From assembly GCF_004010195.1 (NCBI RefSeq), contig NC_057749.1:18135457-18199456 (forward strand): DNA of 64,000 bases, given 5' to 3'. This stretch comes from Chiloscyllium plagiosum (Eukaryota). The translations under genes and the position numbers were made by a program. This document shows, piece after piece, positions 6,958 through 55,517 of the stretch. Position 1 is the stretch's first letter, and every line of letters begins with the position of its first letter. Below the pieces are notes generated by a model. It saw nothing but the letters and a program-made list of their open reading frames with translations. It ran no database searches and was not told the DNA's origin.

Positions 6958-7335
6958 CAGCCAGCGAGGCAGCATCTGAGAAAGAGGAGAATCGATGTTT
7001 CGAGCATAAAGTCTTCATGAGGAATGTTGTAAGATTGGTACAAGGAGACAAAGAGATAAATGGGAGGGGGGTGGGGCTGGTGGGGAAGGTAGCTCTAAAT
7101 GCAATAGGTAGATGAAGTTTGGGGTGATGGTGATAGGTCAGAGAAGAGGGTGAAGCGGATAGGTGGGAAGGAAAATAGACAGGGAGCAAAGTTCAAGGGG
7201 GCGATGCCGAGTTGGAGGGTTGGATCTGCGATGAGGTGGGGAAGGGGAGATTAGGAAACCAGTGAAATTAATGTTGATTGTGTGTGGTTGGAGGATCCAA
7301 AGGTGGAAGATGAGGTGATCTTCCTGCAGTAATTT
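6958..7335 (-). mobile_element. Penelope-like element 3' fragment (GIY-YIG C-terminus, tail and decayed hammerhead motif)
   Basis: Minus translation LLQEDHLIFHLWILQPHTININF. Tail CATTCCTCATGAAGACTTTATGCTCGAAACATCGATTCTCC matches the copies at 39601 and 49601. Confidence 0.8.
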
Positions 7336-7819
7336 GAACATCACTGGAACACACCCCCTAAACAACCCCAGTGCCCTGTGGTCCAGTAGCCATGTCACCG
7401 ATTCTTGTGACCCTCCTGCCCCGTTCCCCAATGGAACTCCACGTGCTTCCAGTAGAATCAGCAGAGAGAAGGTAACTATCAAACTTCTGAACCTATGGAA
7501 TTGTAATTTCAAAAATGAAAAAGCAGCTATAACACTCCCGAAGTTTGGGGTGTCTTTCCCAAAACAAATTAGAGGTGGATGGGTTTCACCTCAACTTGAA
7601 ATGAATTGGCTGCTGCATGGGCTTTGTCGCTACCTTGAATGAAATAAATTTAGTCGTTAGAAATGAGAAGTGGCTTTGTTTTAAAGGAGGCACTGGACAG
7701 TTGGCAGGAGGGGAGAAGGGACTTGGACAGAGATTGCTGCTGGACCGATTGTAGTGGCTTAGCATTGGGAAATCACGAGTGTCACTTCAAAACTTGCAGT
7801 TGACACAAAAGAGGGCAAC

Positions 7820-8211
7820 AAATATAAATGATTTGGATGTGATCATTGCAGGTACAGTTAGTAAGTTTGCAGATGACACCAAAATTGGAGATGTAGTGGA
7901 CAGCAAAGAAGGTTACCTCAGATTACAACAGGATCTTGATCAGATGGGCCAATGGGCTGAGGAGTGGCAGATGGAGTTTAATTCAGATAAATGTGAGGTG
8001 CTGCTGCATTTTGGGAAAGCAAATCTTAGCAGGACTTATACACCTAATGGTAAGGTCCTAGGGAGTGTTACTGAACAAAGAGACCTTGGAGTGCAGGTTC
8101 ATAGCTCCTTGAAAGTGGAGTCGCAGGTAGATAGGATTGAGAAGAAGGCGTTTGGTATGCTTTCCTTTATTGGTCAGAGTATTGAGTACAGGAGTTGGGA
8201 GGTCATGTTTA
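7820..8211 (+). mobile_element. CR1 LINE reverse transcriptase fragment
   Basis: INDLD...[10 protein letters not shown]...[26 protein letters not shown]; ends in a gap. Confidence 0.95.
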
Positions 8212-8991
8212 NNNNNNNNNNNNNNNNNNNNNNNNNNNNNNNNNNNNNNNNNNNNNNNNNNNNNNNNNNNNNNNNNNNNNNNNNNNNNNNNNNNNNNNNN
8301 NNNNNNNNNNNNNNNNNNNNNNNNNNNNNNNNNNNNNNNNNNNNNNNNNNNNNNNNNNNNNNNNNNNNNNNNNNNNNNNNNNNNNNNNNNNNNNNNNNNN
8401 NNNNNNNNNNNNNNNNNNNNNNNNNNNNNNNNNNNNNNNNNNNNNNNNNNNNNNNNNNNNNNNNNNNNNNNNNNNNNNNNNNNNNNNNNNNNNNNNNNNN
8501 NNNNNNNNNNNNNNNNNNNNNNNNNNNNNNNNNNNNNNNNNNNNNNNNNNNNNNNNNNNNNNNNNNNNNNNNNNNNNNNNNNNNNNNNNNNNNNNNNNNN
8601 NNNNNNNNNNNNNNNNNNNNNNNNNNNNNNNNNNNNNNNNNNNNNNNNNNNNNNNNNNNNNNNNNNNNNNNNNNNNNNNNNNNNNNNNNNNNNNNNNNNN
8701 NNNNNNNNNNNNNNNNNNNNNNNNNNNNNNNNNNNNNNNNNNNNNNNNNNNNNNNNNNNNNNNNNNNNNNNNNNNNNNNNNNNNNNNNNNNNNNNNNNNN
8801 NNNNNNNNNNNNNNNNNNNNNNNNNNNNNNNNNNNNNNNNNNNNNNNNNNNNNNNNNNNNNNNNNNNNNNNNNNNNNNNNNNNNNNNNNNNNNNNNNNNN
8901 NNNNNNNNNNNNNNNNNNNNNNNNNNNNNNNNNNNNNNNNNNNNNNNNNNNNNNNNNNNNNNNNNNNNNNNNNNNNNNNNNNNNNNNNNNN

Positions 8992-9098
8992 ACCCCCCTC
9001 TCATTTATCTCCGAGTCCACTTGGATCACAATGATTCTCCTGCTTCAGGGATGCTGCCTGCCCGGCTGTGCTTTTCCAGCACCACACCTTTTGATTGT
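8992..9098 (+). mobile_element. Penelope-like element 3' tail
   Basis: GATTCTCCTGCT..GGATGCTGCCTG...CTGTGCTTTTCCAGCACCACA matches 39635-39690. Confidence 0.7.
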
Positions 9099-9099: not shown

Positions 9100-9250
9100 T
9101 CAGCACTGACCCTCTGACAGTGTGGCACTCCCTCGGTACTGACCCTCCAACAGTGTGGCACTCCCTCGGTACTGACCCTCCGACAGTGCAGCACTCCCTC
9201 AGCACTGACCCTCCGACAGTGCAGCACTCCCTCAGCACTGACCCTCCGAC
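9100..9250. repeat. 33-bp minisatellite segment (~5 units)
   Basis: Same unit as 3597-6955. Confidence 0.95.
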
Positions 9251-9380
9251 AGCAGTGCAGTGCTCCGTCAGTACTATATTGGAAGTGTGTGTATTGATTT
9301 TGCTCAGCTCTCTGGAATCATTTTTGAGCCAGAGGGTTTCTGAGTATGAGTCAAGCGCAGTAACCATTGGGACACGGTCG
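9250..9380 (-). mobile_element. Decayed tRNA-derived SINE head (Deu-domain/SacSINE1-like), contiguous with the 33-bp array
   Basis: Minus strand has a degenerate A box (TGTCCCAATGG) and B box (GGCTCAAAAA), then AGTACTGACGGAGCACTGCACTG leading into array units. Family assignment is from recalled consensus. Confidence 0.5.
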
Positions 9381-12942: not shown

Positions 12943-14179
12943 GAGGACTGATGAAGGCAGAGTGATGGATGTTGTCTATGTGGACTTCAGTAAGGCGTTC
13001 AACAAGGTTCCACATGGTAGACTGGTTAGCAAGGTTAGATCACATGGAGTCCAGAGAGAGCTAGTCATTTGGATACAAGATTGGCTTGACAGTAGAAGTC
13101 AGAGGGTTGTGTCAGAGGGTTGCTTTTTAGACTGGAGGCCTGTGACCAGCACTATGCCACAGGATTGGTGCTGGGATCCACTGCTTTTCAACATTTATAT
13201 AAATGTTTCAGATGTGATCATAGGAGGTATAGTTAGTAAGTTTGCAGATTACACCAAAATTCGAGGTGTAGTGGACAGCAAAGAGGGTTACCTCAGATTA
13301 CAATGGGATCTTGATCAGATGGGTCAAGGGGCTGAGGAGTGGCAGATGGAGTTTAGCTTAGATAAATGCGAGGTACTGCATTTTGGAAAAACAAATCAGA
13401 GCAGGACTTACACACTTAAAGGTAAGGTCCTGGGGAGTGTTGCTGAACAAAGAGACCTTGGAGTGCAGGTTCATAGCTCCTTGAAAGTGGAGTCGCAGGT
13501 AGATAGGATAGTGAAGAAGGCGTTTGATATGCTTTCCTTTTATTGGTCAGAGTACTGAGTACAGGAGTTGGGAGGTCATGTTGCAGCTGTACAGGACATT
13601 GGTTAGGCCACTGTTGGAATATTGCGTGCAATTCTGGTTTCCCTGCTATAGGAAAGACATTGAGAAACTTGAAAGAGTTCAGAAAAGATTTACAAGGATG
13701 TTGCCAGGGCTGGAGGGTTTGAGATATAGGGAGAGGCTGAATAGACTGAGGCTGTTTTCCCTGAAACGTCAGAGGTTGAGGGGTGACCTTATCAAAGTTT
13801 ATAAAATCATGAGGGGCATGGATAGGGTAAATAGCCAAGGTCTTTTTCCCAGTGTAGGGGAGTCCAAAACTAGAGAGCATAGGTTTAAGGTGAGGGGGCA
13901 AGATTTAAAAGGGACCTAAGGGACAACTTTTTCATGCAGAGTGTGGTGTGTGTGTGAAATGAGCTGCCAGAGGAAGTGGTGAAGGCTGGTACAATTGCAA
14001 CATTCAAAAGGCATCTGGATGGGTATATGAATAGGAAGGGTTTGGAATGATATGGCCCGGGTACTGCAAAATGGGACTAGATTGGGTTGGGATATCTGGT
14101 TGGCAAGAATGAGTTGGACTGAAGGGTCTGTTTCCGTACTGTACATCTCTATAACTCTAGGACTATGACTATGACTATG
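12943..14179 (+). mobile_element. 5'-truncated CR1 LINE (RT to 3' tail)
   Basis: DVVYVDFSKAFNKVPHGRL, SKFADYTK, LVRPLLEYCVQFW; frameshifted; (GACTAT)n tail. Confidence 0.97.
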
Positions 14180-14454: not shown

Positions 14455-14625
14455 CTGTGCTGAAAATCTGAAACAAAATCAGAAATGTCTGGATTAATTC
14501 AACAGGTCTGACAACATGCAGTATCTGAAGAAGGGTCTCTGGACCCAAAACGTTAACTCTGTTTGTCTCTCCAAAGGTGTTACCAGACTTGCTAAGTTTC
14601 TCCAGCACTTTCTGCTCCTGTTTCC
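14455..14625. mobile_element. Short Penelope-derived element with inverted arms and a decayed hammerhead motif
   Basis: Left arm CAGAAATGTCTGGATTAATTCAACAGGTCTG is an imperfect inverse of the right arm CAGACTTGCTAAGTTTCTCCAGCACTTTCTG. CTGAAGAAGGGTCTCTGGACCCAAAACGTTAAC at 14525. Confidence 0.65.
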
Positions 14626-15139: not shown

Positions 15140-17143
15140 AGGGTTAGGGTGAAAGACAAGGTATAGGGTATGCTGGATGATTGGAGAAATTGAGATTTTG
15201 GTTAAGAAACAAAAGGAAGCATATGTCAGGCAGAGACAGGAAAGATCGAATGAATCCTTAGAAGGGTATAAAGGCAGTAGGTGTATACTTAAGGGGGAAA
15301 TCAGGAGGGCAAAACAGGGACATGAGATAGCTTTGACAAATAGGGTTAAGGAAATTCCAAAGGGTTTTTACAAATACATTAAGGACAAAAGGGTAACGAG
15401 GGAGAGAGTAGGCCCTCTCAAAGTTCAGCAAGGCGGCCTTTGTGTGGAGCAGCAAGAGATGGGGAGATACTAAATGAGTATTTTGCATCAGTATTTACGG
15501 TGGAAAAGGATATGGAAGATATAGACTGTAGGGAAATAGATGGTGACATCTTGCAAAATGTCCAGATTACAGAGGAGGTAGTGTTGGATGTCTTGAAACG
15601 GTTAAACATGGATAAATCCACAGGACCTGATCAGGTATACCCTAGAATTCTGTGGGAAGCTAGGGAAGTGATTGCCGGGCCCCTTGTTGAGATATTTGTA
15701 TCATCGATAGTCACAGGTGAGGTGCTGGAAGACTGGAGGTTGGCTAACATGGTGCCACTATAGTAAAGACAAGCCAGGGAACTATAGACCAGTGAGCCTG
15801 GCCTCGGTGGTGGGCAAGTTGTTGGAGGGAATCCTGAGGGACAGGATTAAATGTATTTGGAAAAGTCAGGACTGATTAGAGATAGTCAACATGACTTTTA
15901 CGTAGGAAATTATGTCTTATGAACTTGATTGCGTTTTTTGAAGAAGTAACAAAGATGATTGATGAGGGCAAAGCAGTAAGGTGTTCGACAAGGTTCCCCA
16001 TGGGAGACTGATTAGCAAGGTTAGATCTCACATAATACAGGGAGATCTAGCCATTTGGATACAGATCTGGCTCAAAGGTAGAAGACGGGGGTGGTGGTAG
16101 AGGGTTGTTTTTCAGACTGGAGGCCTGTGACCAGTGGAGTGTCACAAGGATCAGTGCTTGGTCCACTACTTTTCGTCATTTATCTAAATGATTTGGATGT
16201 GAACATGGGAGGTATAGTTAGTAAGTTTGCAGATGACACCAAAATTGGAGTTGTAGTGGACAGCGAAAAAGGTTACCTCGAGAACAACAGGATCTGGACC
16301 AGATGGGCCAATGGGCTGAGAAATGGCAGATGGAGTTTAATTTAGATAATTGCGAGGTGGTGCATTTTGGGAAAGCAAAGCACAGCAGACTTATACACTT
16401 AATGGTAAAGTCCTAGGGAGTGTTGCTGAACAAAGAGATCTTGGAGTGCAGATTCATAGCTCCTTGAAAGTAGAGTCGCAGGTAGATAGGATAGTGAAGA
16501 AGGCGTTTGGTATGCTTTCCTTTATTAGTCAGAGTATTGAGTACAGGTGTTGGGAGGTCATTTTGTGACTGTACAGGACATTGGTTAGGCCACTGTTGGA
16601 ATATTGCGTGTAATTCTGGTCTCCTTCCTATCAGAAGGATGTTGCGAAACTTGAAAAGGATTCAGAAGAGATTGACAAGGATGTTGCCAGGGTTGGAGGA
16701 TTTGAGCTAAAGGGAGAGGCTGAATAGATTGGGGCTGTTTTCCCTGGAGGGTCGGAGGCAGAGGGGTGACCTTACAGAGGTTTATAAAATCATGAGGGGC
16801 ATGGCTAGGTTGAATAGACAAGGTCTTTTCCCAGGAGTGGGGAGTCCACAACTAGAGGGCATAGGTTTGGTGTGAGAGGGGAAAGATATAAAAGGGACCT
16901 AAGGGACAACTTTTTCACACAGAGGGTGGTACGTGTATGGAATGAGCTGCCAGAGAAAGTGGTGGAGATTGGTACAAATACAGCATTTAAAAGGCATTTG
17001 GATGGGTATATGAATAGGAAGGGCTTAGAGGGATGTGGGCCAAGTGCTAGCAATTGGGACTAGATTCGGTTGGGATAACTGGTCAGCATGGTTGAGTTGG
17101 ACTGAAGAGTCTGTTTCTGTGCTGTGCATCTGTGTGACTTTAT
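15140..17143 (+). mobile_element. 5'-truncated CR1 LINE, ~2 kb, multiple frameshifts
   Basis: [67 protein letters not shown]. Confidence 0.97.
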
Positions 17144-19220: not shown

Positions 19221-20886
19221 GGAAAAAGAAGGAAGCATATGTCAGTTATAGACAGGAGAGATCGAGTGAATCCTTAGAAGAGTATAAAGGCAGTAGGAGC
19301 ATACCTAAGGAGGAAATCAGGAGGGCAAAAAGGGGACATGAGATCGCTTTGGCAAATAGAATTAAGGAGAATACAAAGGGTTTTTACAAATATATTAAGG
19401 ACAAAAGGGTAACTGGGGAGAGAATAGGGCCCCTCAAAGATCAGAAAGGCGGCATTTGTGTGGAGCCACAAAAAATGGGGGAGATACTAAATGAATATTT
19501 TGCATCAGTATTTACTGTGAAAAAGGATTTGGAAAATATAGACTTTAGGGAAATAGATGGTGACATCTTGCAAAATGTCCAGATTACAGAGGAGGAAGTG
19601 TTGGATATCTTGAAACGGTTAAACGTGGATAAATCCCCAGGATCTGATCAGGTGTACCTGAGAACTCTGTGGGAAGCTAGAGAAGTGATTGCTGGGCCTC
19701 TTGCTGAGATATTTGTATCATCGATATTCGCAGGTGAGGTGCCGGAAGACTGGAGGTTGGCAAACGTGGTGCCACTGTTTAAGAAGGGCAGTAAAGACAA
19801 GTCAGGGAACTATAGACCGGAGAGCCGACCTCAGTGGGGGGCAAGTTGTTGGAAGGAATCCTGAGAGACAGGATGTACATGTATTTGGAAAGGCAAGGAC
19901 TGATTTGAGGTAGTCAATATGGCTCACAAACTTGATTGAGTTTTTTTGAAGAACTAATAAAGAAGATTGATGAGGGCACAGCAGTAGATGTGATCTATAT
20001 GGACTTCAGTAAGGCGTTCGACAAGGTTCCCCATGGGAGACTGATTAGCAAGGTTAGATCTCATGGAATACAGGGAGAACTAGCCATTTGGATACAGAAC
20101 TGGCTCAAAGGTAGAAGACAGAGGGTGGTGGTGGAGGGNNNNNNNNNNNNNNNNNNNNNNNNNNNNNNNNNNNNNNNNNNNNNNNNNNNNNNNNNNNNNN
20201 NNNNNNNNNNNNNNNNNNNNNNNNNNNNNNNNNNNNNNNNNNNNNNNNNNNNNNNNNNNNNNNNNNNNNNNNNNNNNNNNNNNNNNNNNNNNNNNNNNNN
20301 NNNNNNNNNNNNNNNNNNNNNNNNNNNNNNNNNNNNNNNNNNNNNNNNNNNNNNNNNNNNNNNNNNNNNNNNNNNNNNNNNNNNNNNNNNNNNNNNNNNN
20401 NNNNNNNNNNNNNNNNNNNNNNNNNNNNNNNNNNNNNNNNNNNNNNNNNNNNNNNNNNNNNNNNNNNNNNNNNNNNNNNNNNNNNNNNNNNNNNNNNNNN
20501 NNNNNNNNNNNNNTTATAGAGGTTTACAAAATTATGAGGGGCATGGATAGGATAAATAGACAAAGTCTTTTCCCTGGGGTCGGGGAGTCCAGAACTAGAG
20601 GGCATAGGTTTAGGGTGAGAGGGGAAAGATATAAAAGAGACCTAAGGGGCAACTTTTTCATGCAGAGTGTGGTACATGTATGGAATGAGCTGCCAGAGGA
20701 TGTGGTGGAGGCTGGTACAATTGCACATTTAAGAGGCATCTGGATGGGTATATGAATAGGAAAGGTTTGGAGGGATATGGGCCGGGTGCTGGTAGGTGGG
20801 ACTAGATTGGATTGGGATATCTGGTTGGCATGGACGGGTGGGACTGAAGGTCTGTTTCCATGCTGTACATCTCTACGACTCTATGA
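19221..20886 (+). mobile_element. 5'-truncated CR1 LINE spanning an N gap
   Basis: KGFYKYIKDKRVTGERIGPL, DKSPGSDQVY, DFSKAFDKVPHGRL and a 3' tail; highly similar to 15140-17143. Confidence 0.97.
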
Positions 20887-20892
20887 CCAGAT

Positions 20893-23339: not shown

Positions 23340-24275
23340 TGAATGATTGATTGTTATCACATGGACCGAGATGCAATGAAAAGTTGTTTTGTGTGCTGTC
23401 CAGGCAGGTTGTACCATACAAACTGCATCAGGGTAGCAGAACGGAGTGCAGAATACAGTGTTACAGTCACTGAGAAGGTGCAGAGAGTGAGATCAACATT
23501 AATATTTGAGAAGTCCATTCAAAAGTCTGCAAACAGTGGGGAAGAAGCTGTTCTTGAATCTAACCGTATGTGTATTCAGACTTTTATGTTTACTGCATGA
23601 TGGAAGAGGGATTGGAAGAGAGTATACCAGGGTGGGAGGGCTCTGTGATGATGTTGGTTGCTTCCCTGAGGCAGTAGGAAGGGTAGACAGAGCCAATGAA
23701 TGGAAGGTTGGTTTGTGTGAGGGACTGGGCTGTGTTCACAACTCTCTGCAGTTTCTTGTGGTCCTGGGCAGAGCAGTTGCCGTACTGAGCCATGGTGTGC
23801 CCAGATCAGATGCTGTCTATGGTGCATCTACAAAAATTGGTAAGAGTCCTTGTGGATATGCTGAATTTCCCTAGCCTCCTGAGGAGGTAGAGATGTTGTT
23901 TACTAGATTAGATTACTTACAGTGTGGAAACAGGCCCTTTGGTCCGACAAGTCCACACCAACCCGCCGAAACGCAATCCACCCAGACCCATTCCCCTACA
24001 TTTACCCTTGCCGCTAACACTGCAGGCAATTCAGCATGGCTAATTCACCTAACCTGCACATTTTTGGACTGTGGGAGGAAACCGGAGGAAACCCATGCAG
24101 ACACTGGGAGAATGTGCAAACTCCACACAGACAGTTGCCAGAGGCGGGAATTGAACCCGGGTCTCTGGCGCTGTGAGGCAGCAGTGCTAACCACTGTGCC
24201 ACCGTGCCACGCCGTTGTTGTGCTTTCTTGACTAGAGTGTCAATGTGAGTGGACCAGGACAGAGTGGTGGTGGTT
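23340..24275 (-). mobile_element. Rex/Babar LINE 3' region, interrupted by a SINE
   Basis: Minus translation YGNCSAQDHKKLQRVVNTAQSLTQTNLP...PSHPG and HTVRFKNSFFP, typical Rex1/Babar C-terminus. Confidence 0.85.
23904..24210 (-). mobile_element. HE1/V-SINE-type tRNA-derived SINE, full length
   Basis: Minus head GGCACGGTGGCACAGTGGTTAGCACTGC...GGGTTCAATTCCC (A and B boxes) and (TCTAA)n tail. Confidence 0.92.
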
Positions 24276-25825: not shown

Positions 25826-26743
25826 GAGGTCCGACTGAAGGAGGATTCCTCGTTTACAAACCCCTAATTCTGTGGATGGAAACCAACAAAACTCATGATT
25901 GTCATCTCAGGAACTGATAAACAGAAGTCAGGAAAGAGCAGATCAGAAACGTAGCGACAATAATTAGCTTCACTTTGATTAATGGTGCAGGCAACAAAAT
26001 AACAATTGAATTCTTGTTGGAAACTGAGTTAAAGCTGATGGGATCTGATCAAACCCATTGCAGTGATCAGCCAAGATCCTAATAGCTGGAGGAGCTAACA
26101 GGCCTGCTCCTGTTCCTGTGAAGGTTAATAGTGTTAATGCTCCTAATGTTCATCCTGGGTGGTTTTACCCCAGCTCTGCCCATCCACCCTGACTCAAGTC
26201 CAGCCCCATGCCCCTGGACAGGTATCTCAGTGAACCATGTGGTGGTTAGAATCACAACAAGGTCTAATCCTTCTGCTCAGCTGACCTCTCCATCCAGAGG
26301 AGTCAGGAGCATCGGTGTGGTCTGCTTTATACTTTCAAATGTGAGGAATTGTTTTATTCTGAAGTGCAGAAAGAGACAGACAGAGAGAGAGTTGGTTCAG
26401 GGAGTGCGAGTAATTAGAGAGTGAAGAAGAGAGGTGGAGAGTATATTACAACAGATACAACATTTCAAAACAGCTGCCTTAACCTCTGAAAGCCTCAGAA
26501 TATCCTGTCGCTACATAAATGCAAGTCTTCTATTTAGCAAGGACGGTAACCAAATCCATTAGTAATTTCCAATGCTGTCCATCCATGTATTGGCATAAGG
26601 AGATCGCTCTGTGTAGATTGTTGACACTTGCTTCAGGTGTAGGACATTCTCTTTACAGAATAGGTGGGCACATCAGTCCACATGGGGAGTGTCTGTGCAG
26701 CTCTGTCTCACAACAAATGGTTGTATATCTATTATTGAACCTA

Positions 26744-26963
26744 GTTAAAAATCACACAACACCAAGTTATAGTCCAACAGGTTTATTTGGAAGCACACTA
26801 GCTTTTGGAGTACTGCTCCTTTGCCAGGTGGATGTGACAACCACCTGATGAAGGAGCAGCGCTCTGAAAGCTAGTGCTTCCAATTAAACCTGTTGGACTA
26901 TATCCTGGTGTTGTGTGATTTTTAACTTTGTCCACCCCAGTCCAACACCAGCACCTCCACATT
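26744..26963. mobile_element. Palindromic Penelope-derived element (inverted pLTR arms plus 3' tail)
   Basis: ~85-bp arm GTTAAAAATCACACAACACC...CAGGTG is inverted as CACCTGATGA...GTGATTTTTAAC, followed by a tail TTTGTCCACCCCAGTCCAACACC. Confidence 0.85.
26842..26876 (+). ncRNA. Minimal type I hammerhead ribozyme motif (Penelope-type), core intact
   Basis: CAC-CTGATGA-A-GGAGC-AGC-GCTCT-GAA-AGCT-A-GTG: stem I CAC/GTG, 5-bp stem II, palindromic tetramer in place of helix III. Confidence 0.7.
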
Positions 26964-27374
26964 ATTGTTGTTGAACACTCTATCTTGCTATCAATACCAT
27001 CCAAAAAAAACACACCTGGAAAAGTGAATGAGATTGGGGAGTTGCTCAACTCTCTCCATCGCTGGATGACTGAATCTGATCAGAGAGACTGGGGACGAGT
27101 CAAATATAAGCAGGGGAGTTAATGAATGTGGAAAATTCAGCATTTATCATTTACTTGCTTTTTGTTTTGTTCTCATTTAGTGGCCTGTCCTGCTGTGGAA
27201 AAGGAATGGTACCACATGGGGATGGCCATTGGGTTCATTGTGCCTGTCCTAGCACTTTGAAACTTTTTCCCACTTAGTCCCACTCACTACCCTGTCCTCA
27301 CAACCCTTTTCCAGAGTATATCTGATGCCCTTGTGCAAGGTCCTGTTGAATCTGCATCGAGTGTCTCACATAGA

Positions 27375-29736: not shown

Positions 29737-29758
29737 AGTACAGAATAGTTGGGCGGAA

Positions 29759-35984: not shown

Positions 35985-37965
35985 AGAGTTCTGAGAGTCC
36001 CAAAAGCTGTGTTGCCTGATACCCCGGTTCAGGATATCTCCTCTGAGTGGCAGAGAAAATTGGAGTGGGAGGGGAAAGGTCCAGTCATCGTGGTTCATGT
36101 AGCTACCAACAATGTGGGTAGGAAGAGGAAAGAGATTCTGCGGAAGGTATATGAGGCCTGTGACCAGTGGAGTGCCACAAGGATCGATGCTGGGTCCATT
36201 ACGTTTTATCATTTCTATAAATGATTTGGATATGAGCATAGGAGGTATGGTTAGTAAGTTTGCAGATGACACCAAGATTGGAGGTGTAGTGGACAGCAAA
36301 GAAAGTTACCTCAGATGGGCCAATGGGCTGAGGAGTGGCAGATGGAGTTTAATTCAGATAAATGCGAGGTGCTGCATTTTGGAAAGGCAAATCAAAGCAG
36401 GACTTGTACACCTAATGGTAAGGTCCTAGGAAGTGTTCCTGAACAAAGAGACCTTGGAGTGCAGTTTCATAGCTCCCTGAAAGTAGAGTCATAGGTAGAT
36501 AGGATAGTGAAGAAGGCGTTTGGTATGCTTTCCTTTATTGGTCAGAGTATTGAGTACAGGAGTTGGGAGGTCATGTTGCAGCTGTACAGGAAATCGGTTA
36601 GGCCAGTTTTGGAGTTTGCATGCAATTCTGGTCTCCTTCCTATTGGAACGATGTTGTGATAATTGAAAGGGTTCAGAAAAGATTTACAAGGATGTTGCCA
36701 GGGTTGGAGGATTTGAGCTTTGGGAGATGTTGAATAGGCTGCAGCTGTTTTCCATGGGACATCGGAGGCTGAAGGGTGACCTTATAGAGGTTTATAAAAT
36801 CATGAGGGGCATGGATAGGATAAATAGACAAGGTCTTTTCCCTGGGGTAGGGGGGGTCCAGACTAGAGGGCATAGGTTGAAGGTGAAAAGAGAAAATTTT
36901 AAAAGGGACATAAGGGGCAATGTTTTCACGCAGAGGGTGGGGCGTGTATGGAATGAGCTGCCAGAGGAAGTGGTGGAGGCTGGTACAATTGCAACATTTA
37001 AAAGGCATTTGGATGGGTATATGAATAGGAAGGGTTCAGAGGGATATGGGCCAAGAGTTGGTCAATGGGACTAGATTTGGGATAGGATATCTGGTTGGCA
37101 TGGAGACGTTGGACCAAAAAGTGTTTCTGTGCTGTACCTCTCTGTGACTCTGTGAGCAGCAGGTGATTAAAGTAAAAAGCAGGACCCAAAGGGTAATAGT
37201 CTCTGGATTACTAACTGAGTCATGAGCAAATTGTCACAGGGCCTTTAAGATCAAAGAGGTAAATGTGTGGCTCAAAGGTTGGTGTGGGAGGGACAGATTT
37301 GAATTCATGGAACAGTTCTGGGGAAGGAGGGAGCTGTTCCAATGGGACAGAGTCCACCTGAATCACGCTGGTACCAGAGTCCTGGCCAATCGCATATCTA
37401 GGGCTGTGGATAGGGAGTTCAAATAATGGGTGGGGGGAGGTTCATTTTCATGGAAAATTATGAAAAAGTTAAAGGAGGGGAACGGCTCATCAGAGGTTAT
37501 TAAAGTTTCCCGAACAAGTAATAGGACAGAATATGGAAAGGGGAATTGAACTTCAGGCACAGCAGATAAGGGGGCAACAATGGGAAGGGGTGCAGTCCGT
37601 GTAAGGTCATCTGATGGTTTTCTGCTGAAATGTACACAGTACATGAAACAAGGGGAATTAGCTTGTGCTGCAGATTGAAATTGGCAGCTATGATGCTGTG
37701 GGTATGACAGGTGTGGCTCCAAGGGGGTCAGGGCTGGGAAATAAATATCCAGGCTACACGGCCTATCAGATAGGACAGGCAGATGGGCAGAAGGTTCCCT
37801 TATTGGTAAGAAATGAAATTAAACCAATAGCAAGAAGTGAAATGGAGTCGGAAGGTATAGAATCTGTGTAGGTAAAGTTGAGGAACCACAAAGGATAAAA
37901 GACCCTGATGGGAGTTGTCTGTAGGCCCCGAGCAATTGTCAGGATGTGATCAGCAATATGTGACA
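35985..37965 (+). mobile_element. Old CR1 ORF1 (SGNH/GDSL esterase) plus decayed AP-endonuclease start, split by a younger CR1
   Basis: LPDTPVQDISS...[14 protein letters not shown] before the insert. After it: KSRTQRVIVSGLL...NVWLKGWC...WDRVHLNHAGTRVLA, then IEIGSYDAVGMT...LLVRNEIK...IESV. Confidence 0.75.
36155..37153 (+). mobile_element. Young 5'-truncated CR1 nested in CR1 ORF1
   Basis: [36 protein letters not shown]; tail CTCTGTGACTCTG. Confidence 0.95.
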
Positions 37966-39267: not shown

Positions 39268-39698
39268 AATCCTAGCCACTCAATGCCTGGAGGAAGAACA
39301 CCTCATCTTCCACCTTGGGACCCTCCAACCACACTGGATCAATATGGATTTCACCAGTTTCTGCATCTCCCCTCCCACCACCTCATCCCAGATCCAACTC
39401 TCCAACACGGCACTGCCCCCTTGAACTTCCCTACCTGTCCATCTTCCTTCCCACCTATCCACTCCACCCTCCTCTCTGACCTATTACCATCACACTCCCA
39501 CCTGCAAGTACCTATCGCTTTCCCAGCTACCTTCCCACCCCCAGCCCCACCCCCTCCTATTTATCACTCAGCCCCTTTCCCTCCAGCACCCCCACCACCA
39601 ACATTCCTGATGAAGGGCTTATGTCCAAAATGTCAATTCTCCTGCTCCTCAGATGCTGCCTGACCGCCTGTGCTTTTCCAGCACCACACTTTTCGACT
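39268..39698 (+). mobile_element. Penelope-like element 3' fragment (GIY-YIG C-terminus, tail, decayed hammerhead)
   Basis: ATQCLEEEHLIFHLGTLQPHWINMDF; CATTCCTGATGAAGGGCTTATGTCCAAAATGTC at 39602. Confidence 0.82.
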
Positions 39699-44291: not shown

Positions 44292-44483
44292 GTTAAAAAA
44301 TCACACAACACCTGGTTATAGTCCAACAGGTTTATTTGGAAGCACTGGCTTTCGGAGAGCTGCCTGATGAAGGAGCAGCGCTCCAAAATCTAGTGCTTCC
44401 AATTAAACCTGTTCGACTATAACCTGGTGTTGCATGATTTTTAACTTTGTCCACCCCAGTCCAACACCGTCATCTCCACATTA
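44292..44483. mobile_element. Palindromic Penelope-derived element with a perfect 14-16 bp TSD
   Basis: Same arms as 26744 and 30888; TCTCTATTAACATGGT at 44278-44293 and 44484-44499. Confidence 0.88.
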
Positions 44484-45565: not shown

Positions 45566-48500
45566 ATTCATTAATGGTGATATAATATTATTACATTAAC
45601 AGAGGAATATGATAAGATAGAAGTATATCATGGTGGTATAGAAGTCTTTTATTAACACAGTGATAAAATTGTGTTAAAAGTGATATATTAATACAGAGTT
45701 TTGATAGCGTTATATGTATTTATATTGTATTTATGTGGTAATATATTAATGGTGATCAGATGGTATTTATATAACACTGATACTGCAGAAACACTGTACT
45801 GTAATCATTATATTAATGCTAATGTCACAGTGTCACATCAAGACTATGATATGTGAGTATTAACACAGTCACACAATTATGTAACATGAACAGCATGATT
45901 TGAGAGTGTTACATTACTAGGGTGAAATGAGAGTTTTGTATTAATGGGGACATGAGAGTGTTGTATTAACATGGGTATATGCAAATGTTACATTAACAGG
46001 GTAATATGAGAATGCTGTATTAACAGGGGGATATGAGAGTGATGTATTAACAGGGTGATATGGGAGTGTTACATTAACAGGGGGATATGAGAGTGTTGTA
46101 CGAACAGGGGGATATGAGAGTGCTGTATTAACAGGGTGATATGAAAGAGTTACATTAATACGGTGATATGAGAGTGTTACATTAACGGGGGATATGAGAA
46201 TGCTGTATTAACAGGGGGGATATGAGAGTGATGTATTAACAGAGGGGATATGAGAGTGATGTATTAACAGGGTGTTATGAAAGAGTTACATTAATAGCGT
46301 GACATGAGAATGTTACATTAACTGGGGGATATGGGAGTGCTGTATCAACAGGGTGATATGGGAGTGTTACATTAACAGGGAGATATGAGAGTGCTGCATT
46401 AACAGGGGGATATGCGAGTGTTGTATTAACAGGGGGATATGAGAGTGCTGTATAAACAGTGAGATATGAGAGTACTGTATTAAATGGGGAATATGCGAGT
46501 GTTACATTAACAGCGTGACATGAGAATGTTACATTAACTGGGGGATATGGAGTGTTATATTAACAGGGTGATAAGAGTGTGTTACATTAACAGGGGGATA
46601 TGAGAGTGCTGTATTAACAGGGTGATGTGAGAGTGTTGTATTAACAGGGTGATGTGAGAGAGTGTTACATTAGCAGGGTGATAAGGAAGTGTTAAATTCA
46701 CGGGGGATATGAGAGTGTTACATTAACAGGGGGATATCAGAGTGTTGTATTAACAGGGGAATTTGAAAGTGTTACATTAACAGGGTGCAATGTGAGTGCT
46801 ATATTAACAGTGTGATAGGAGACTGCTGTATTAACAAGGGGATATGCGAGTGCTGTATTAATAGGGTGATGTGAGAGTGTTACATTAACAGGATGATAAG
46901 AGTGCGTTTCATTAACAGGGAGTTATGAGAGTGTTATATTAACAGTGATATGAGAGTGTTACACTAATGGGGGATATGAGAGTGCTGTATTAACAGGGTT
47001 TTATGGGAGTGTTACATTAACAGGGGGATATGAGAGTGTTGTACTAACAGGGGGATATGAGAGTGCTGTATTAACAGGGGGATAACAGAGTGTCGTATTA
47101 ACAGGGGAATGTGAGAGTGCTGTATTAACAGGGGGATATGAGAGTGTTGCATTAACAGGGGGATATGAGATTGCTGCATGAACGGGGATATGAAAGTGCT
47201 GTATTAAATGGGGAATATGCAAGTGTTACATTAACAGCATGATATGAAAATGTTACACTAACTGGGGAATATGGGAGTGTTGTATCAACAGAGTGATAAG
47301 AGTTTGTTACATTAACAGGGAGTTATGAGAGTGCTAACAGGGGGATGTGAGAGTGTTACATTAACGGGATATGAGAGTGCTGTATTAACAGGGTGATATG
47401 AGAGTTACATTAACAGTGGGTTATGAGAGTGTTGTATTAACAGAGGGTCATGAGTGTGTAACGTTAACAGGGTGATATGAGGATGTTCTATTAACAGGGG
47501 ATATGAGAATGTTACATTACTGGGGGAATATGAGAATGCTGTATTAACAGGTGGATATGAGAGTGTTAAATTAACAGGGGATATGAGAGTGTTTCATTAA
47601 CGGGGAATATGAGAATGCTGTATTAGCAGCGGGATATGTGTGTGCTGTATTTACAGGATGATATGAAAGTGTTACATTTACAGGGGAATATGAGAGTGTT
47701 GTATTAAAAGCATGTATTAACACGTTGATATGAGAGTGTTAGATTAGCAGGGGGATACGAGAATGCTGCATTTAGCTGGGGAATATGAGAGTTCTGTAAT
47801 AACAGGAGGATATGAGCGTGGTAGAATAGCATTAACAGGGTGATAAGAGTGTGTTACATTAACAGGGGGATATGAGAGTGCTGCATTAACAGGGTGATGT
47901 GCGAATGTTACATTAGCAGGGTGATAAGAGAGTGTTAAATTCACGGGGGATATGAGAATGTTACATTAATGGGGGATATCAGAGTGCTGTATTAACAAGG
48001 GGATATCAGAGTGTCGTATTAACAGGGGAATGTGAGAGTGCTGTATTAACAGGGGGGATATGAGAGTGTTACATTAACAGGAGGATATGAGAGTGTTTCA
48101 TTAATGGGGAATATGAGAATGCTGTATTAGCAGCGGGATATGTGTGTGCTGTATTTACAGGATGATATGAGAGTGTTACATTAACAGGGGAATATGAGAG
48201 TGTTGTATTAAAAGCATGATATGAGACTGCTGTATTAACAGGGTGATATGAAAGTGTTACATTAACTAGGGAATATCAGGATGTTACATTATCTGAGGGA
48301 TACGACAGTGTTGTATTAGCAGGTGATAAGAGTGTTACATTAACGGGGGATATGAGAATGTTGTATTAACAGGATGATATGAGAGTGTTACATTAACAGG
48401 AGAAATATGAGAGTGCTGTATTAACACGTTGATATGAGAGTGCTATATTAACAGGGGATATGAGAGTGCTGTATTAACATGTTGATATGCGAGTGCCATA

Positions 48501-49505
48501 TTAACAGGGGATATGAGAGTGCTGTATTAACACGTTGATATGAGAGTGTTAGATTAGCAGGGGGATATGAGTGTGCTGCATTTAGCTGGGGAATATGAGA
48601 GTCCTATAATAAGCAGGGGTATGAGCATGGTAGATTAACATGGTGATATGAGAGTATGACATTAACAGGTTGATATGAAAGTGTTACATTAACAGGGGGA
48701 GATGAGAGTGCCATATTTATAGTAGGAGATGAGAGTGCTATATTAACAGGGTGATAAGACAGTGTTACATTAACAGGTGAATATGAGAGTCCTGTATTAA
48801 CAGGGTGATGTGAGAATGTTACATTAACCGAGGGATATGAGAGTGTTACATTAACAGTGGAATATGAGAGTGTTACATTACTAGGGTGATATGAGAGTGC
48901 TGTATTAACAGTGTGATGAGAGTGTTACATTAACTGGAAGATATGAGTGTGCTGTATTAACAGGATGATATGAGAGTGCTGTATTAACAGGGAGATATGA
49001 CAGTGTTACATTAACAGGGGAATATGAGGGTGTTAAATTAATTTGGGATATAAGAATTCTGTCATAACAGTGGAATTTGAGAGTGGTATTTTTACAGGGG
49101 GAGCTGAGAGTGCTATATTAGCAGTGTGATATGAGAATGTTATATCAACAGGGGATATGAGAGTGCTGTATTAACAGGGGGAAATGAGAGTGCCATATTA
49201 ACAAGGGGATATAAGAGTGTTATGTTAACAGGGTGATATGAGGGTGTTATATTAATGGGGGTTAGAGAGCGTTGTATTATCAGGGTGATGTAAGAGTGTT
49301 ACATGAACAAGGTGAAATGAGAGTGTTGTATTAACAGTGGGATATGAGAGTGTTACATTAACAGGGTGATATGAAAGTGCTGTATTAAAAGGGAATATGA
49401 GAATGTTAACAGGGAATCTGAGAGTGTTGTATTAACAGGGGGATGCAGAGTCTTACATTAACAGGGGAATGTGAGAGTGCTGTATTAACAGGGTGATATG
49501 AGAGT

Positions 49506-49826
49506 GTGGAGAAAGTGAGGGCTGCAGATGCTGGAGATCAGAGCTGAAAATGTGTTGCTGGAAAAGCGCAGCAGGTCAGGCAGCATCCAAGGAGCAGGAG
49601 AATCGATGTTTCGGGCATAAGCCCTTCTTCAGGAATGAGGAAAGTGTGTCCAGCAGGCTAAGATAAAAGGTAGGGAGGAGGGACTTGGGGGAGGGGCGTT
49701 GGAAATGCGATAGGTGGAAGGAGGTCAAGGTGAGGGTGATAGGCCGGAGTGGGGGTGGGGGCGGAGAGGTCAGGAAGAAGATTGCAGGTGAGGAAGACGG
49801 TGCTGAGTTCGAGGGATTTGACTGAG
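49506..49826 (-). mobile_element. Penelope-like element 3' tail inserted in the satellite
   Basis: Related to 39400-39698 and 6958-7250; contains a hammerhead motif. Confidence 0.82.
49601..49637 (-). ncRNA. Minimal hammerhead ribozyme motif, core intact
   Basis: Minus strand CATTC-CTGAAGA-A-GGGC-TTAT-GCCC-GAA-ACAT-C-GATT. Confidence 0.65.
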
Positions 49827-52030
49827 ATATGAGGGTGTCATATTAATGGGGGTTAGACAGCGTTGTATTATCAGGGTGATGTAAGAGTCTTACATGAACA
49901 GGGGAATATGAGAGTGCTGTATTAATGGGGGATATTAAAAATGCTGCATTAACTGGGTGATATGAGAGTGTTTCCGAACAGGGGGTTTGGAGTGTCACAT
50001 TAACAAGGGGATATGAGAGTGCTGTATGGACAGGGGGATATGAGAGTTCAGTAATAACAGTGTAATATGAGAGTGTTGTATTAACAGGGAGATATAAGAG
50101 TATTGTATTAACAGGGGAATTTGAGAGTGTTGTATTAATAGGATGATAGAGTGCTGTATTAACAGGGGGATATGAAAGTGTTGCATTAACAGGGGGCTAT
50201 CAGAGTGTTACATTAACAGGGAAATATGCGAGTGCTGTATTAACAGGGGAATATTAGAGTGCTGTATTAACAAGGGGATATGAGAGTGTTAACTTAACAG
50301 GGAGTCTGAGTGTGTTGTATTAATGGGGGAATGCAAGAGTTGTACATTATCAGGAGAATATGAGTGTTACATTAACAGAGGATGTGAGAGTGTTGTATTA
50401 ACAGGGGGATATGAGAGTGTTGTATTCACAGGGGGATATGATAGTGCTATATTAAGAGGGTGATATGAGAGTGCTGCATTAACAGCGTGATATGACAGTG
50501 ATTCATTAACGGGGGATGCGAGACGGCTGTATTAACGGTGATATTAGAGAGTTAAGTGTGATATGAGAGTGCTATATTAACAGGGGGAGATGACATTGCT
50601 GAATTACCGGGGGATATGAGAGTGTTATATTAACTGGGATATGAGAATGTTGTATTAACAGAAAGGTATGAGAGTGTTACATTAACGGAGATTATGACAG
50701 TGCTGTATTAGCAAGGGAATATGAGAGTGTTGTATTAACAGGAAGATATGAGAGTGCTGTATTTAAAGGGGGATATGAGAGTGTTAAATTAACAGGGAAT
50801 CTGGGAGTGTTGTATTAACAGGGGGATATGAGAGTGTTAAATTCACAGAGGGATGTGAGAGTGTTGTATTATCAGGAAGATATGAGAGTACTGTATTTAA
50901 AGGGGGATATGAGAGTGTTAAATTAACAGGGAATCTGGGAGTGTTGTATTAACAGGGGGATATGAGAGTGTTGTATTCAGGGGATATGAGGGTGTTGTAT
51001 TCACAGGTGGATATGATAGTGCTATATTAAGAGGGTGATATGAGAGTGTTTCATTAATGGGGGATATGAGAGGCCTGTATTAACAGTGATATTAGAGTGT
51101 TAAGTGTGATATGAGAGTGCTGTATTAACAGGGTATATGAGAGTGTTACATTAACAGAGGGAGATGACATTGCTGAATTACCAGAGGGATATGAGAGTGT
51201 TATATTAACTGGGGATATGAGAGCGTTGTATTAACAGGAAGATATGAGAGTGTTACATTAACGGGGGTTATGACTGTATTAGCAAGGGAATATGAGAGTG
51301 TTGTATTAACAGGGTGATATGAGAGTGTTGCATTAACAGAGGGATGTGAGAGTGTTGTATTAACAGGGTGATATGATAGTGCTGTATTTAAAGGCGGATA
51401 TGAGAGTGTTAAATTAACAGGGAATCTGGGAGTGTTGTATTAACAGGGTGAAATGAGAGTGTTGCAATAACAGGGGGATATGAGAGTGCTGTGTTAACAG
51501 GGGGAAATGAGAATGCTGTATTAACAGGGGATATGAGAGTGTTACATTAATGGGGCGATATGAGAGTGCAGTATTAACAGTGTAATATGAGTGCTGTATT
51601 AACAGGGGGATATGAGAGTGCAATATTAACAGTTTAATATGAGAGTGCAGCATTAACAGGGGGATATGAGAGTGCTGTATTAACAAGGTGATGAGAGTGC
51701 TACATTAACAGGGAGACATTAGAGTGTTACATTAACAGGGGGATGTGAGAGTGTTGTATTAACAGGGTGATATGAGAGTGTTGCAATAACAGGGGGATAT
51801 GAGAGTGCTGTGTTAACAGGGAGAAATGAGAATGCTGTATTAACAGGGGGATATGAGAGTGTTGCATTAACAGGGTGATATGAGAGTGTTACATTAACAG
51901 GGGAAGATAAGAATGTTACCTTAACAGGGGGATTTGAGAATTATGTATTAACACAGGAATAGGAGAGTGTCACATTAACGGGGGATATGAGGGTGTTGTA
52001 CTAACGGTGATATAAGAGTGCTGTATTAAA

Positions 52031-52349
52031 ATTAGATTAGATTAGATTACTTTACAGTGTGGAAACAGGCCCTTCGGCCCAACAAGTCCACACCGCCCCG
52101 CCGAAGCGCAAACCACCCATACCCCTACATTTACCCCTTACCTAACACTATGGGCAATTTAGCATGGCCAATTCACCTGACCTGCACATCTTTGGCCTGT
52201 GGGAGGAAACCGGAGCACCCGGAGGAAACCCACGCAGACACGGGGAGAATGTGCAAACTCCACACAGTCAGTCGCCAGAGGCGGGAATTGAACCCGGATC
52301 TCTAGCGCTGCGAGGCAGCAGTGCTAACCACTGTGCCACCGTGCCGCCC
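52031..52349 (-). mobile_element. HE1/V-SINE-type SINE, full length, inserted in the satellite
   Basis: Minus head GGGCGGCACGGTGGCACAGTGGTTAGC...GGGTTCAATTCCCGCC and (TCTAA)4 tail. Confidence 0.93.
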
Positions 52350-55116
52350 AATGGGGGATCTGAGAGTGCTGCATTAACAGGATGTTATCAGAGAGTTACA
52401 TTAATAGCGGGTTATGAGAGTGTTCATTAGCAGGAGTATATGAGGGTGCTGTATTAATAGAGTGATATGAGAATGTTACATTAACAGGGTGATATGAGAG
52501 TTTTACACTAACAGGGTGATATGAGGATGATGTACTAACAGGGTGATATGAGAGTGCTGTATTAACAGGGGGATATGAGACTGCTGTATTAACATGGTGA
52601 TATGAGGGTATTAACGGGGAATATGAGAGTGCTATATTAGCAGAGTATATGAGAGTGTTCATTAATTGGAGATATGGCAGTGTTGGAGTAACAGGAGGAT
52701 ATGTGAGTGTTACATTAAGAGGGGATATGAGAGTGCTATATTAACAGGGTGATGTGAGAGTGCTGTATTAACAGGGGGATATGAGAGGGTTATATTAACG
52801 GTGGGATAAATGAGTATTGTATTAACAGGGTGATATGAGAGTATTAGATTAACAGAGTGATGTGGAGTGCTGAACCAACTGGGTGATTTGAGAGTGCTGT
52901 ATTAACAGGGTGATATGAGAGTGCTCTACTAACAGAATGATTTGAGGGTGTTACATTAACTGGAAGATATGCGAGTGCTGTACTAACAAGGTGATAAGAG
53001 AGTGTTACATTAACAGGGGGATATGAGGGAGTCATATTAACAGCAGGATATGAGAGTGCTCTATTAGCTGGGTGATATGAGAGTGCTGTATTAACAGGGT
53101 GATATGAGAGTGTTACATTACTGGGGGATGTGAGAGTGCTGTACTAACAGGGTGATATGAGAGTGTTACATTAACAGGGAGATATGAGAGGGCTGTATTA
53201 ACAGCATGATATGAGAGTACAATATTAACAGGTGGTATGGAAGTGCTGTACTAACAGCGTGATAGGAGGGTGCTGTATTAAAATGGAGATATGAGAGTGT
53301 TACATTAACAGGGAATCTAAGAGTGTTGTATTAATGATGGGATGCAAGAGTCTTACATTATCAGGGAGATATGAGAATGCTGTATTAACAGTGGAATATG
53401 GGAGTGTTACATTAACATGGGGATATGGGAGTATTACATTAACATGGGGATATGGGAGTGTTACATTAACATGGGGATATGAGAGTGTTGTATTAACAGA
53501 GGGATATAAGGGAGTCATATTAACAGCAGGATATGAGAGTGCTCTATTAACTGGGTGATATGAGAGTGCTGTATTAACACGGTGATATGAGAGTGTTACA
53601 TTAACAGGGATATATGAGAGTGCTGTATTAACAGGGTGATATTAGAGTGTTACATTAACGGGGATGTGAGAGTGCTGTATTGACAGGGGGATATGAAAGT
53701 GCTGTATTAACAGGGTGATATGAGAGTGCTGTATTAACAGGGTGATATGAGGGTCCTGTATTAAAAGGGGGATATGAGAGTGTTACATTAACAGGGAATC
53801 TAAGAGTGTTGTATTAATGATGGGATGCAAGAGTCTTACATTAATAGGGAAATATGAGAATGCTGTATTAAAAGGGGGATATGAGAGTGTTACATTTACA
53901 TGGGGAAATGGGAGTGTTACATTAACAGGGGGATATGAGAGTGTTCATTAACAGAAGGATACGAGGGTGCTGTATTAACAGGGTGATATGAGAATGTATT
54001 ATTAATGGAGGGATATGAGGGTGTTGTATTCACAGGGGAATATGAGGGTGCTGCATTAACAGCGAGATATGAGAGTGTTGTATTAACAGGGGAATATAAG
54101 GGTGTTGTATTAACAGGGAGACATGAGAGAGCTATATTAACAGGGTGATATGAGAGTGTTGTATTAGCAGGGAAATATGAGAGTGCTGTATTAACAGGGT
54201 ATATGAAAGTGTTCCATTAACTGGGGATATGGCAGTGTTGTATTAATAGGAGGATATGAGAGTTTTACATTCAGAGGGATATGAGAGTGCTGTATTAATA
54301 GAGGAATATGAGAGGCTTATATTAACAGAGGGATATATGAGTATTGTATTAACAGGGTGATATGAGAGTATTAGATTAACAGAGTGATATGGAGTGCTGA
54401 ATTAACAGGGGTATATGAGAGTACTGTATTAATGGGGGTTATGAGAGTGCTGCATTAACAGGGTGATATGAGAGTGCTCTACTAACAGAATGATTTAAGG
54501 GTGTTACACTAACTGGAAGATATGAAAGTGCTGTACTAACAGGGTGATAAGAGAATGTTACATTAACAGCAGGATATGAGAGTGCTGTACTAACAGGGTG
54601 ATAAGAGAGTGTTACACTAACAGCAGGATATGAGAGTGCTATATTAACAGGGGAATATGAGAGTGCTGAATTAACGGGGGATATGAAAGTGCTGTATTAA
54701 AAGGGGGATATGAGAGTGTTAAATTAACAGGGAATCTGAGAGTGTTGTATTAACGAGGGGGTGCAAGAGTCTTACATTAACAGGGGATATGAGAAAGCTC
54801 TATTAACAGGGGGATATGAGAGTGCTGTATTGTCAGGGGGAAATGAGAGTGCTATATTATCAGGGGTATATGAGAGTGCTGTTCTGACGGGGTGATATGA
54901 GAGTGTTATGTTAACAGGGGGATATGATAAGTGCTGTATTAACAGGGGATCTGAGAGTGCTTTGTTAACAGGGTGATATGAGGGTGTTATATTAACAGGA
55001 GGATCTGAGAGTGCTTTGTTAACAGGGTGATATGAGGGTGTTGTATGAACAGGGTGGTATGAGACTGCTGTATTAACAGGGTGATATGAGGGTGTTGTAT
55101 TAACAGGGTGATATGA

Positions 55117-55517
55117 GAATTTTGAGAAGATTTGTAGCTCAGGTTGATGTTCTGAATGTTGGTTTGCTCGCTGTTCATTTCCAGACGTTTTCATCACCCT
55201 ACTAGGTAACATCTTCAGTGGGCCTCCAGGTGAAGCACTGCTGATAATTCCTGCTTTCTATTTGTATGTATGGGTTTCTTTGGGTTGGTGATGTCATTTC
55301 CTGTGCTGATGTCATTTCCTGCTGTTTTCTCTCTCAAGGATGGTAGATGGGGTCTAACGCGATGTGTTTGTTGATAGAGATCTGGTTGGAATACCATGCT
55401 TCTAGGAATTCTCGTGCATGTCTCTGTTTGGCTTGTCCTAGGATGGATGTGTTGCCCTAGTTGAAGTGGTGTTCTTCCTTATGTGTATGTAAGGATACTA
55501 GCGAGAGAGGGTCATGT
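55117..55517 (-). mobile_element. Penelope element 3' fragment from a different family (GIY-YIG C-terminus plus hammerhead)
   Basis: Minus translation SLVSLHTHKEEHHFN*GNTSILGQAKQRHAREFLEAWYSNQISINKH; CCA-CTGAAGA-T-GTTACC-TAGTAG-GGTGAT-GAAAACGTC-TGG at 55181-55221. Confidence 0.82.

Follow-up and report, generated by a model that had tools for sequence, protein, structure and literature searches.

Minimal hammerhead motifs in probable fossil insertions of endonuclease-bearing Penelope-like elements of Chiloscyllium plagiosum

Minimal hammerhead ribozymes (min-HHRs) in the pseudo-long terminal repeats (pLTRs) of metazoan Penelope-like elements (PLEs) have been known since 2014 (Cervera and De la Pena 2014, PMC4209133), and a specialist would expect them in a fish-like vertebrate. 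As described there, they cleave weakly as dimers but not as monomers, and the highest vertebrate counts, obtained with an RNAmotif descriptor, are about 4,000 in coelacanth and about 9,000 in Xenopus; no cartilaginous fish is among the entries consulted in Table S1 and Fig. S3 of that paper. Our literature search, which left Repbase, Dfam and subscription journals outside its scope, found no report on PLE hammerheads in cartilaginous fishes. Insertions of endonuclease-positive (EN+) PLEs are described as carrying an inverted, 5'-truncated pLTR, a one-sided tail of 30-40 bp and a target-site duplication (TSD) of 8-10 bp (Arkhipova et al. 2013, PMC3846280; Craig et al. 2021, PMC8557442), and a linker motif CX2-5CxxC is given as a mark of the Neptune layout that is absent from the Poseidon layout (PMC8557442). 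For the Anolis Poseidon element PAc, the in vitro account of Frangieh et al. (2024, PMC11167929) reports that both DNA strands are cut and extended, that two adjacent internal starts of reverse transcription explain the tail, and that the hammerhead depends on the protein and is dispensable for insertion. Non-LTR retrozymes of animals, with a type I hammerhead derived from PLE pLTRs, are also described, one chondrichthyan genome being included (Li, Clavereau, Pollet 2026, bioRxiv 10.64898/2026.07.22.740005). The present analysis concerns hammerhead motifs in NC_057749.1:18135457-18199456, a stretch of 64 kb (61,354 non-N bases) of the 3.56-Gb assembly of Chiloscyllium plagiosum, which is referred to as the window.

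The motifs are very probably the remains of fossil insertions of endonuclease-bearing PLEs, of the Neptune type (family B, D as an older relative of it, and probably A) and of the Poseidon type (family C). At all 12 positions where a sequence-only reading of the window had placed dispersed hammerhead-like sites, family-homologous remnants of minimal type I hammerheads were found; they lie within nine PLE insertions in 64 kb, in agreement with its estimate of about one insertion per 7 kb. With a descriptor consisting of stem I, CUGANGA, stem II and GAAA-NN-U-H, two window matches had the strict core, defined as CUGANGA, GAAA, U and H (26845 on the plus strand and 49632 on the minus strand), and five were obtained with one core mismatch, compared with none in each of 15 block-shuffled windows at either setting; with two mismatches, 11 matches stand against a mean of 3 (six shuffles). 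The motif form that had been written for all sites is, hence, above chance in the window as a whole, but most of the individual sites depart from it. The strict core is kept in two of the 12, at 26842 (plus) and 49601 (minus), and core, palindrome and both stems occur together at 26842 alone, with a G.U at the base of stem II. At 14525, 39602 and 44361, AAAA replaces GAAA, corresponding to CpG decay of G12. The palindromic tetramer, AGCT or ACGT, holds for the family majorities and has decayed to ACAT (7000, 29700, 49601), ATGT (39602) and ATCT (44361). Most window motifs are, to judge from these sequences, decayed fossils rather than ribozymes; a core-intact motif alone does not amount to an active ribozyme, and the motifs demonstrate neither a new ribozyme nor a host function. 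The elements and motifs of the window are the following.

6967-7329, minus strand: 5'-truncated family B PLE with the last codons of the GIY-YIG open reading frame (ORF), 3' untranslated region (UTR) and pLTR; its 3' end adjoins a 33-bp tandem array
6990-7025, minus strand: family B (Neptune-type) min-HHR remnant; broken core CTCATGA, tetramer ACAT
9033-9094 (with a UTR-like part, 9005-9094), plus strand: family B pLTR body without hammerhead; a tenth insertion piece, absent from the sequence-only reading
14460-14517, minus strand: part of a family D pLTR in inverted orientation, lying upstream of the motif at 14525
14522-14557, plus strand: remnant of a family D min-HHR; AAAA in place of GAAA, stem I broken in part
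26737-26962: family A head-to-head insertion; inverted arm, direct arm, one-sided tail of about 35-40 nt, imperfect TSD
26796-26830, minus strand: family A min-HHR remnant of the inverted arm; broken core, CTGGCAA and AAAA
26842-26876, plus strand: best-kept motif of the window, family A; CAC/CTGATGA/A/5-bp stem II/GAA/AGCT/A/GTG, predicted cut after 26873
29700-29735, minus strand: family D min-HHR remnant; core CTGAGCA, tetramer ACAT, pLTR body extending to about 29590
30885-31094: family A insertion, arms head to head; tail present, TSD of 12 bp with one mismatch
30938-30970, minus strand: family A motif; core with a 2-nt deletion
30976-31010, plus strand: family A motif; CCGATGA
39277-39697, plus strand: 5'-truncated family B PLE with GIY-YIG C-terminal codons, 3' UTR and pLTR; motif at 39603-39638, AAAA for GAAA
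44282-44484: family A insertion, arms head to head; tail present, TSD about 16 bp long
44343-44363, minus strand: family A inverted-arm motif; 5' half of the hammerhead gone
44361-44395, plus strand: family A direct motif; AAAA, 5' strand of stem I lost
49601-49636, minus strand: family B min-HHR; strict core, stem II of 4 bp, stem I of 2 bp, tetramer ACAT; within a family B insertion (about 49500-49749) inside a 27-bp tandem array
55110-55500, minus strand: 5'-truncated family C PLE with GIY-YIG C-terminal codons (stop-free at 55337-55456), 3' UTR and pLTR
55181-55221, minus strand: min-HHR of family C (Poseidon type); stem II of 7 bp, GAAA followed by an additional A

Two further occurrences of CTGATGA, at 21639 and 56365, are without stem I and were rejected as chance. 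A search of the window against Rfam, with E up to 10, returned eight matches, none of them to a hammerhead family; those to MIR821 and bantam were rejected as merely long family A hairpins with scores far under the gathering thresholds.

The high density proposed for the window holds for the whole genome, as seen from pattern counts. The core-only pattern gave 386,087 matches compared with 28,530 for the reversed control, that is, an excess of about 357,000, or one per 10 kb, with a background share of about 7%; of the first 100 such matches inspected by eye, 87 were of B (72), A (8) or C type (7). Near-complete motifs numbered 12,186 for family A, 73,125 for family B, 11,437 for the C type (C and a sister family) and 328 for D together with its sister E, 97,076 in total, each with a control count of 0. 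Two loci on different contigs, L065 and L072, are near-identical over 1.9 kb outside the repeat, which points to duplicated or unplaced haplotype sequence in the assembly; because of such sequence, the genome counts may be slightly inflated.

For the tallies by copy, the copies from the window and from genomic loci were combined (A 64, B 67, C 42, D 4). The loci of B and C were the 30 best genomic matches per family, picked by likeness to the window copies, those of C including the window's own; L072, a near duplicate of L065, was dropped, as were three loci repeating window copies. The strict core is present in 39/64 A, 30/67 B, 30/42 C and 1/4 D copies. The majority tetramer at 15.1-16.1 is AGCT in A and ACGT in B, C and D, and a palindromic tetramer is retained in 37 of 39 core-intact A, 16 of 30 core-intact B and 10 of 30 core-intact C copies. 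An unpaired base precedes stem II, and pair 10.1-11.1 is G-C in 50/64 A, 45/67 B and 24/42 C copies, the remainder being mostly G.T from CpG decay.

That the motifs are min-HHRs of Penelope-like pLTRs, as had been proposed, is borne out by the ORFs of the genomic copies, through which families B and C can be linked to GIY-YIG and, in the case of C, also to reverse transcriptase (RT). The longest copies of family C (L058, L053) encode RT (PF00078, E 2.6e-7) followed by a C-terminal GIY-YIG domain (PF01541, E 7e-4 and 2e-3, both under the Pfam curated cut-off); two Cys residues lie between GIY and YIG, and the linker CX2-5CxxC is missing, as is any linker CxxC. By this domain layout, and not by an RT tree, family C would belong to the Poseidon type (Penelope/Poseidon clade). 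The family B copy L087 contains a CX4CxxC linker and GIY-YIG (PF01541, E 3e-3, likewise under the curated cut-off), which would make B a Neptune-type family by linker layout, Neptune and Nematis not being separated by a tree; RT was not found within the 1.5-kb flanks of the B loci examined. The motif occupies a fixed position 3' of GIY-YIG in 30/30 C and 30/30 B loci. In the window, where three copies had been described as lying directly 3' of GIY-YIG remnants, Pfam yielded nothing credible for these remnants (best E 0.15); they match the C-terminal ends of same-family genomic ORF pieces, the two of family B those of L073 and that of family C those of L053 (35/39 identical). The remnants are located about 120-250 nt upstream of the motif and do not adjoin it.

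Family A is probably also of the Neptune type, as suggested by an ORF piece with a CX4CxxC linker that is found upstream of an A-type pLTR in L057, a sister-subfamily copy with a rearranged middle, and that recurs 650-900 bp upstream, on the same strand, in three of 39 other scored places. It is 27% identical to the family B linker (E 1e-6), and GIY-YIG itself was not seen there. For family D (14525, 29700), a first look gave 4,310 genomic candidates, as places only. Its pLTR body aligns with that of B, so that D is related to B and does not count as a lineage of its own. The sequence-only reading had named at least four families and several independent lineages; several families do exist, but they amount to three clearly separate lineages and D. 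A fifth motif family, E, is a sister of D (L036:2680-2790, L041:830-900) and has a GCT/AGC stem I, a GAGTC/GACTC stem II and a 5-nt loop. The sister of family C, with a GTCACC/GGGGAC stem II, accounts for most near-complete C-type motifs, looks young and uniform, and is absent from the window. A recurring match to the core pattern (C1:713556, C1:1272411), with the middle GTGGGG...CTGCA and the tetramer AGAT, fits none of A to E; it could represent a further repeat family or a chance occurrence within a long interspersed nuclear element (LINE).

Between families, the stem sequences are unrelated and the pairing is kept. In A and C, stem I has 3 bp and in D it has 3-4 bp, but in B it consists of 2 bp, a mismatch and 1 bp, so that the ATTC/GATT pairing formerly written for family B is not upheld: pair 3 is T.T in 37, T.C in 17 and T-A in one of 67 copies, that is, a mismatch in 54 of them. 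The covariation claimed for the stems is present as compensatory switches, but these are few between-subfamily events carried by many copies, tallied by copy and without a phylogeny-aware test. In family B, stem II pair 2 is switched between G-C (40 copies) and A-T (13 of 67), A-T being absent from this pair among the first 100 near-complete family B matches in the genome. In D/E, pair 2 of stem I, scored by eye in the 100 matches listed, is T-A in 64, C-G in 18, T.G in 8, C.A in 6 and other in 4; D and E also differ, again by eye, by a compensatory change at stem II pair 2.

Motif anatomy, the ORF link of B and C, TSDs, tails, copy numbers and start positions are direct observations of this study, beside which the following course of events is proposed. 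The pLTR of each family opens with a minimal type I hammerhead lacking a helix III of its own, which could fold solely with the element protein as a helper or by pairing with a second copy through the palindrome, AGCT or ACGT. The RT/GIY-YIG protein would nick both DNA strands about 10-15 bp apart, and reverse transcription would be initiated at two internal positions that lie close together in the pLTR RNA; both steps are published for Anolis Poseidon and are carried over here. A longer direct arm with the tail and a shorter inverted arm would result, arranged head to head with a junction differing between copies, and copies beginning at the downstream pLTR would include part of the ORF. Most copies stop in or just 5' of the hammerhead, as would be expected of an uncleaved template with its 5' end, or of an RT stall, at this place. 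After insertion the copies decay, chiefly at CpG, without visible protection.

The insertion anatomy was assessed in 32 family A palindromes, a small sample composed of the 30 best genomic matches (the 26737 window copy included), selected by likeness to one copy and its junction, and the other two window copies. In these, the tail is found on the direct arm and not on the inverted arm, and a TSD score of at least 9 was reached in 25 of the 32, compared with a mean of 1.4 for mismatched pairs. Inverted arms are present in families B and C, too. At two loci (L055:1430-1500, minus strand; L049:3100-3150), a C-type 3' end adjoins a partial A-type arm, possibly by nested insertion or by an inter-family template switch.

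A different origin of the short palindromes would be that they are non-autonomous units, comparable to miniature inverted-repeat transposable elements or retrozymes, which replicate as whole hairpins and are not rebuilt at each insertion. The top 30 family A genomic matches are, indeed, all palindromes, nine of them having exactly the same junction and about as many near variants of it; these 30 were, however, picked by junction likeness, and in pattern lists not so picked many different junctions occur. The two arms of a copy are slightly closer to each other than arms of different copies (5.1% versus 5.8% divergence, with CpG and marker columns excluded; permutation p 2e-4), and nine private variants, in eight of the 32 copies, are common to both arms, as against 105 that are unshared. 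Tandem arrays of the motif, the defining trait of non-LTR retrozymes as given in bioRxiv 10.64898/2026.07.22.740005, are missing, no head-to-tail hammerhead units being found among the 47 tandem-repeat rows of the window. None of the subfamily markers is fixed on short versus long arms in the 32 palindromes, and the palindrome read-through folds as a hairpin of -131.6 kcal/mol that buries the hammerhead. Replication as whole hairpins is, on balance, improbable.

The subfamily markers bear also on the number of templates used per palindrome. Two markers agree between the arms in 27/32 and 26/32 palindromes, and nine of the 32 show a disagreement in at least one of them; for the A/T marker the arms disagree in six of 32, while 0.4 would be predicted from the background rate (15 of 1,231; p 2e-6) and 16 from independent draws. 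This discordance fits a mixture of one-template and two-template events, and two pLTRs of one transcript, later gene conversion or a mutational hot spot would also do. As a tentative extension of the PLE reading, which we regard as rather doubtful, each insertion might involve two priming events, one per nicked strand, often on two uncleaved RNA templates in one complex, perhaps brought together by a dimeric RT along with the palindromic tetramer; in that case, the hammerhead would be mainly a module for RNA pairing or assembly and not a cutter. With its tens of thousands of palindromes, the genome would allow a direct test of how inverted pLTRs form in PLEs.

R2 ribozymes define the 5' end of the copied RNA. 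By analogy, the hammerhead could cleave efficiently in vivo and set this end, a view to which the core kept in every family despite differing stems would lend itself. The arm starts argue otherwise. Among 59 B-type arms found in locus flanks, unselected by query, the start lies at most 20 nt ahead of the core in 23; it falls within the motif in 18, downstream of it in 10 and in the UTR in eight, and in none of the arms at the cut site. Since copies begin at the hammerhead or within it, and not where it would be cut, the RNA that was copied looks uncleaved. In family A, the truncated-arm pattern gave 899 matches versus 6,394 with a longer arm, and of the first 100 truncated junctions, inspected by eye, eight do end at the cut site, but each of these has a microhomology, CAC or AC, to the opposite arm, and for about 15 of the 100 the end point is, instead, the 3' end of stem II. 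In the piece at 9005-9094, UTR-like sequence is joined to the 3' strand of stem I exactly at the predicted cut site; given the short microhomology and the UTR-like sequence retained upstream, an internal deletion is likelier than resumption after cleavage. An uncleaved template would also correspond to the Anolis work, in which uncleaved RNA is described as the main substrate and no reads ended at the site (PMC11167929). That in vivo cleavage sets the copied 5' end is thus a distinctly improbable account.

RNA reads fit passive read-through of paralogues and cannot bear on cleavage: on L012:300-2700, which holds A and B copies, raw single-cell polyA reads at 85% likeness numbered 6,701 in run X19, on repeats only and on both strands, 97% of them continuing into unlike sequence without a pile-up of molecule starts or ends, and run X20 gave no reads. 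For 26300-31150, the absence of any listed indexed RNA speaks for neither side. G12 is mutated in 12/64 arms. From the non-CpG core changes (12/619 cells, versus 93/2,776 downstream), nothing is concluded on selection on the core after insertion, the alignment being anchored on the core and the matches picked by score.

Chance matches or ordinary hairpins in debris of LINEs and short interspersed nuclear elements (SINEs), a notion nourished by the ten of 12 motifs that fail the strict core, the lack of an Rfam hammerhead and the background among core-only genome matches, are refuted by the counts, namely the shuffles without strict matches and about 97,000 family-pattern matches against none in the control, and by the fixed place 3' of GIY-YIG in loci picked for likeness to the window copies, and have practically no probability.

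Several points weigh against the interpretation as fossil EN+ PLE insertions with uncleaved templates. A stall of RT at the structure explains the start positions equally well as a true 5' end of the RNA, and these positions derive from local alignments and shift with decay, four of the 10 downstream starts being D-type cross-hits. No full-length intact PLE was seen among the loci examined, and every GIY-YIG match stays below the Pfam curated cut-off. The PLE link of family A is an indirect one, through the sister-subfamily copy with its rearranged middle, and family D, for which no ORF was seen, would be tied to PLEs via the pLTR body shared with B. Finally, nearest-neighbour energies do not favour an active dimer of 26842-26876, the hammerhead-competent dimer being predicted at -11.1 kcal/mol, compared with -21.7 for a dimer of non-hammerhead form and -7.2 for each monomer; this is a weak objection, such models ignoring tertiary contacts of the core and protein.

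The surrounding window is rich in LINE debris and tandem arrays. The 33-bp array at 3598-6932 has about 101 copies with 95% match, and its unit recurs in smaller arrays at 2496-2589 and 9100-9252; frames without a stop, about 1,000 codons long, run along either strand as a by-product of this unit. Further tandem arrays extend over 45889-55118, 57637-59233 and 59232-64000, among them a 27-bp array of about 347 copies, broken up by the insertions of families B and C. Another, with a 24-bp unit in about 199 copies, is perfect and runs past the window end; it could be an assembly artefact. Decayed LINE 3' ends, which from their translated motifs we take to be of the CR1/L2 type, were noted at 12988-14160, 15206-17142, 19222-20890, 27363-27915, 36153-37151 and 55480-57060, and some LINE 3' ends finish in SINE-like tails, for example at 23904-24205.

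Compared with the known systems, the motifs follow the min-HHRs described in PMC4209133 in CUGANGA, one unpaired base, G10.1-C11.1, GAAA-N-N-U-H, a palindromic 15.2-16.2 and a short stem I; family B is close in form to the Acropora Neptune motif and family A has the AGCU tetramer of the shrimp motif of that paper. Several families per genome, mostly solo truncated copies and opposite-strand pairs are likewise common to both. The architecture of EN+ PLEs (PMC3846280, PMC8557442) is encountered again in the head-to-head arms, the tail on one arm, the TSD and the varied junctions, whereas many insertions of C. plagiosum consist of two pLTR stubs only (about 200-230 bp) and have TSDs of about 10-16 bp. 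In comparison with Anolis PAc (PMC11167929), the element families differ, and those described here are known from sequence alone. The retrozymes of bioRxiv 10.64898/2026.07.22.740005 are head-to-tail tandem units, in contrast to the dispersed solo or head-to-head stubs of this genome. What stands out is the scale: about 97,000 near-complete motifs and an excess of about 357,000 core-only ones, six-figure core-only numbers in a single genome, compare with the 4,000 to 9,000 of PMC4209133 in a ratio that is rough, the descriptors being different. The genome, therefore, offers a large natural data set for the insertion mechanism of PLEs, both for arm starts relative to the cut site and for the number of templates per palindrome.

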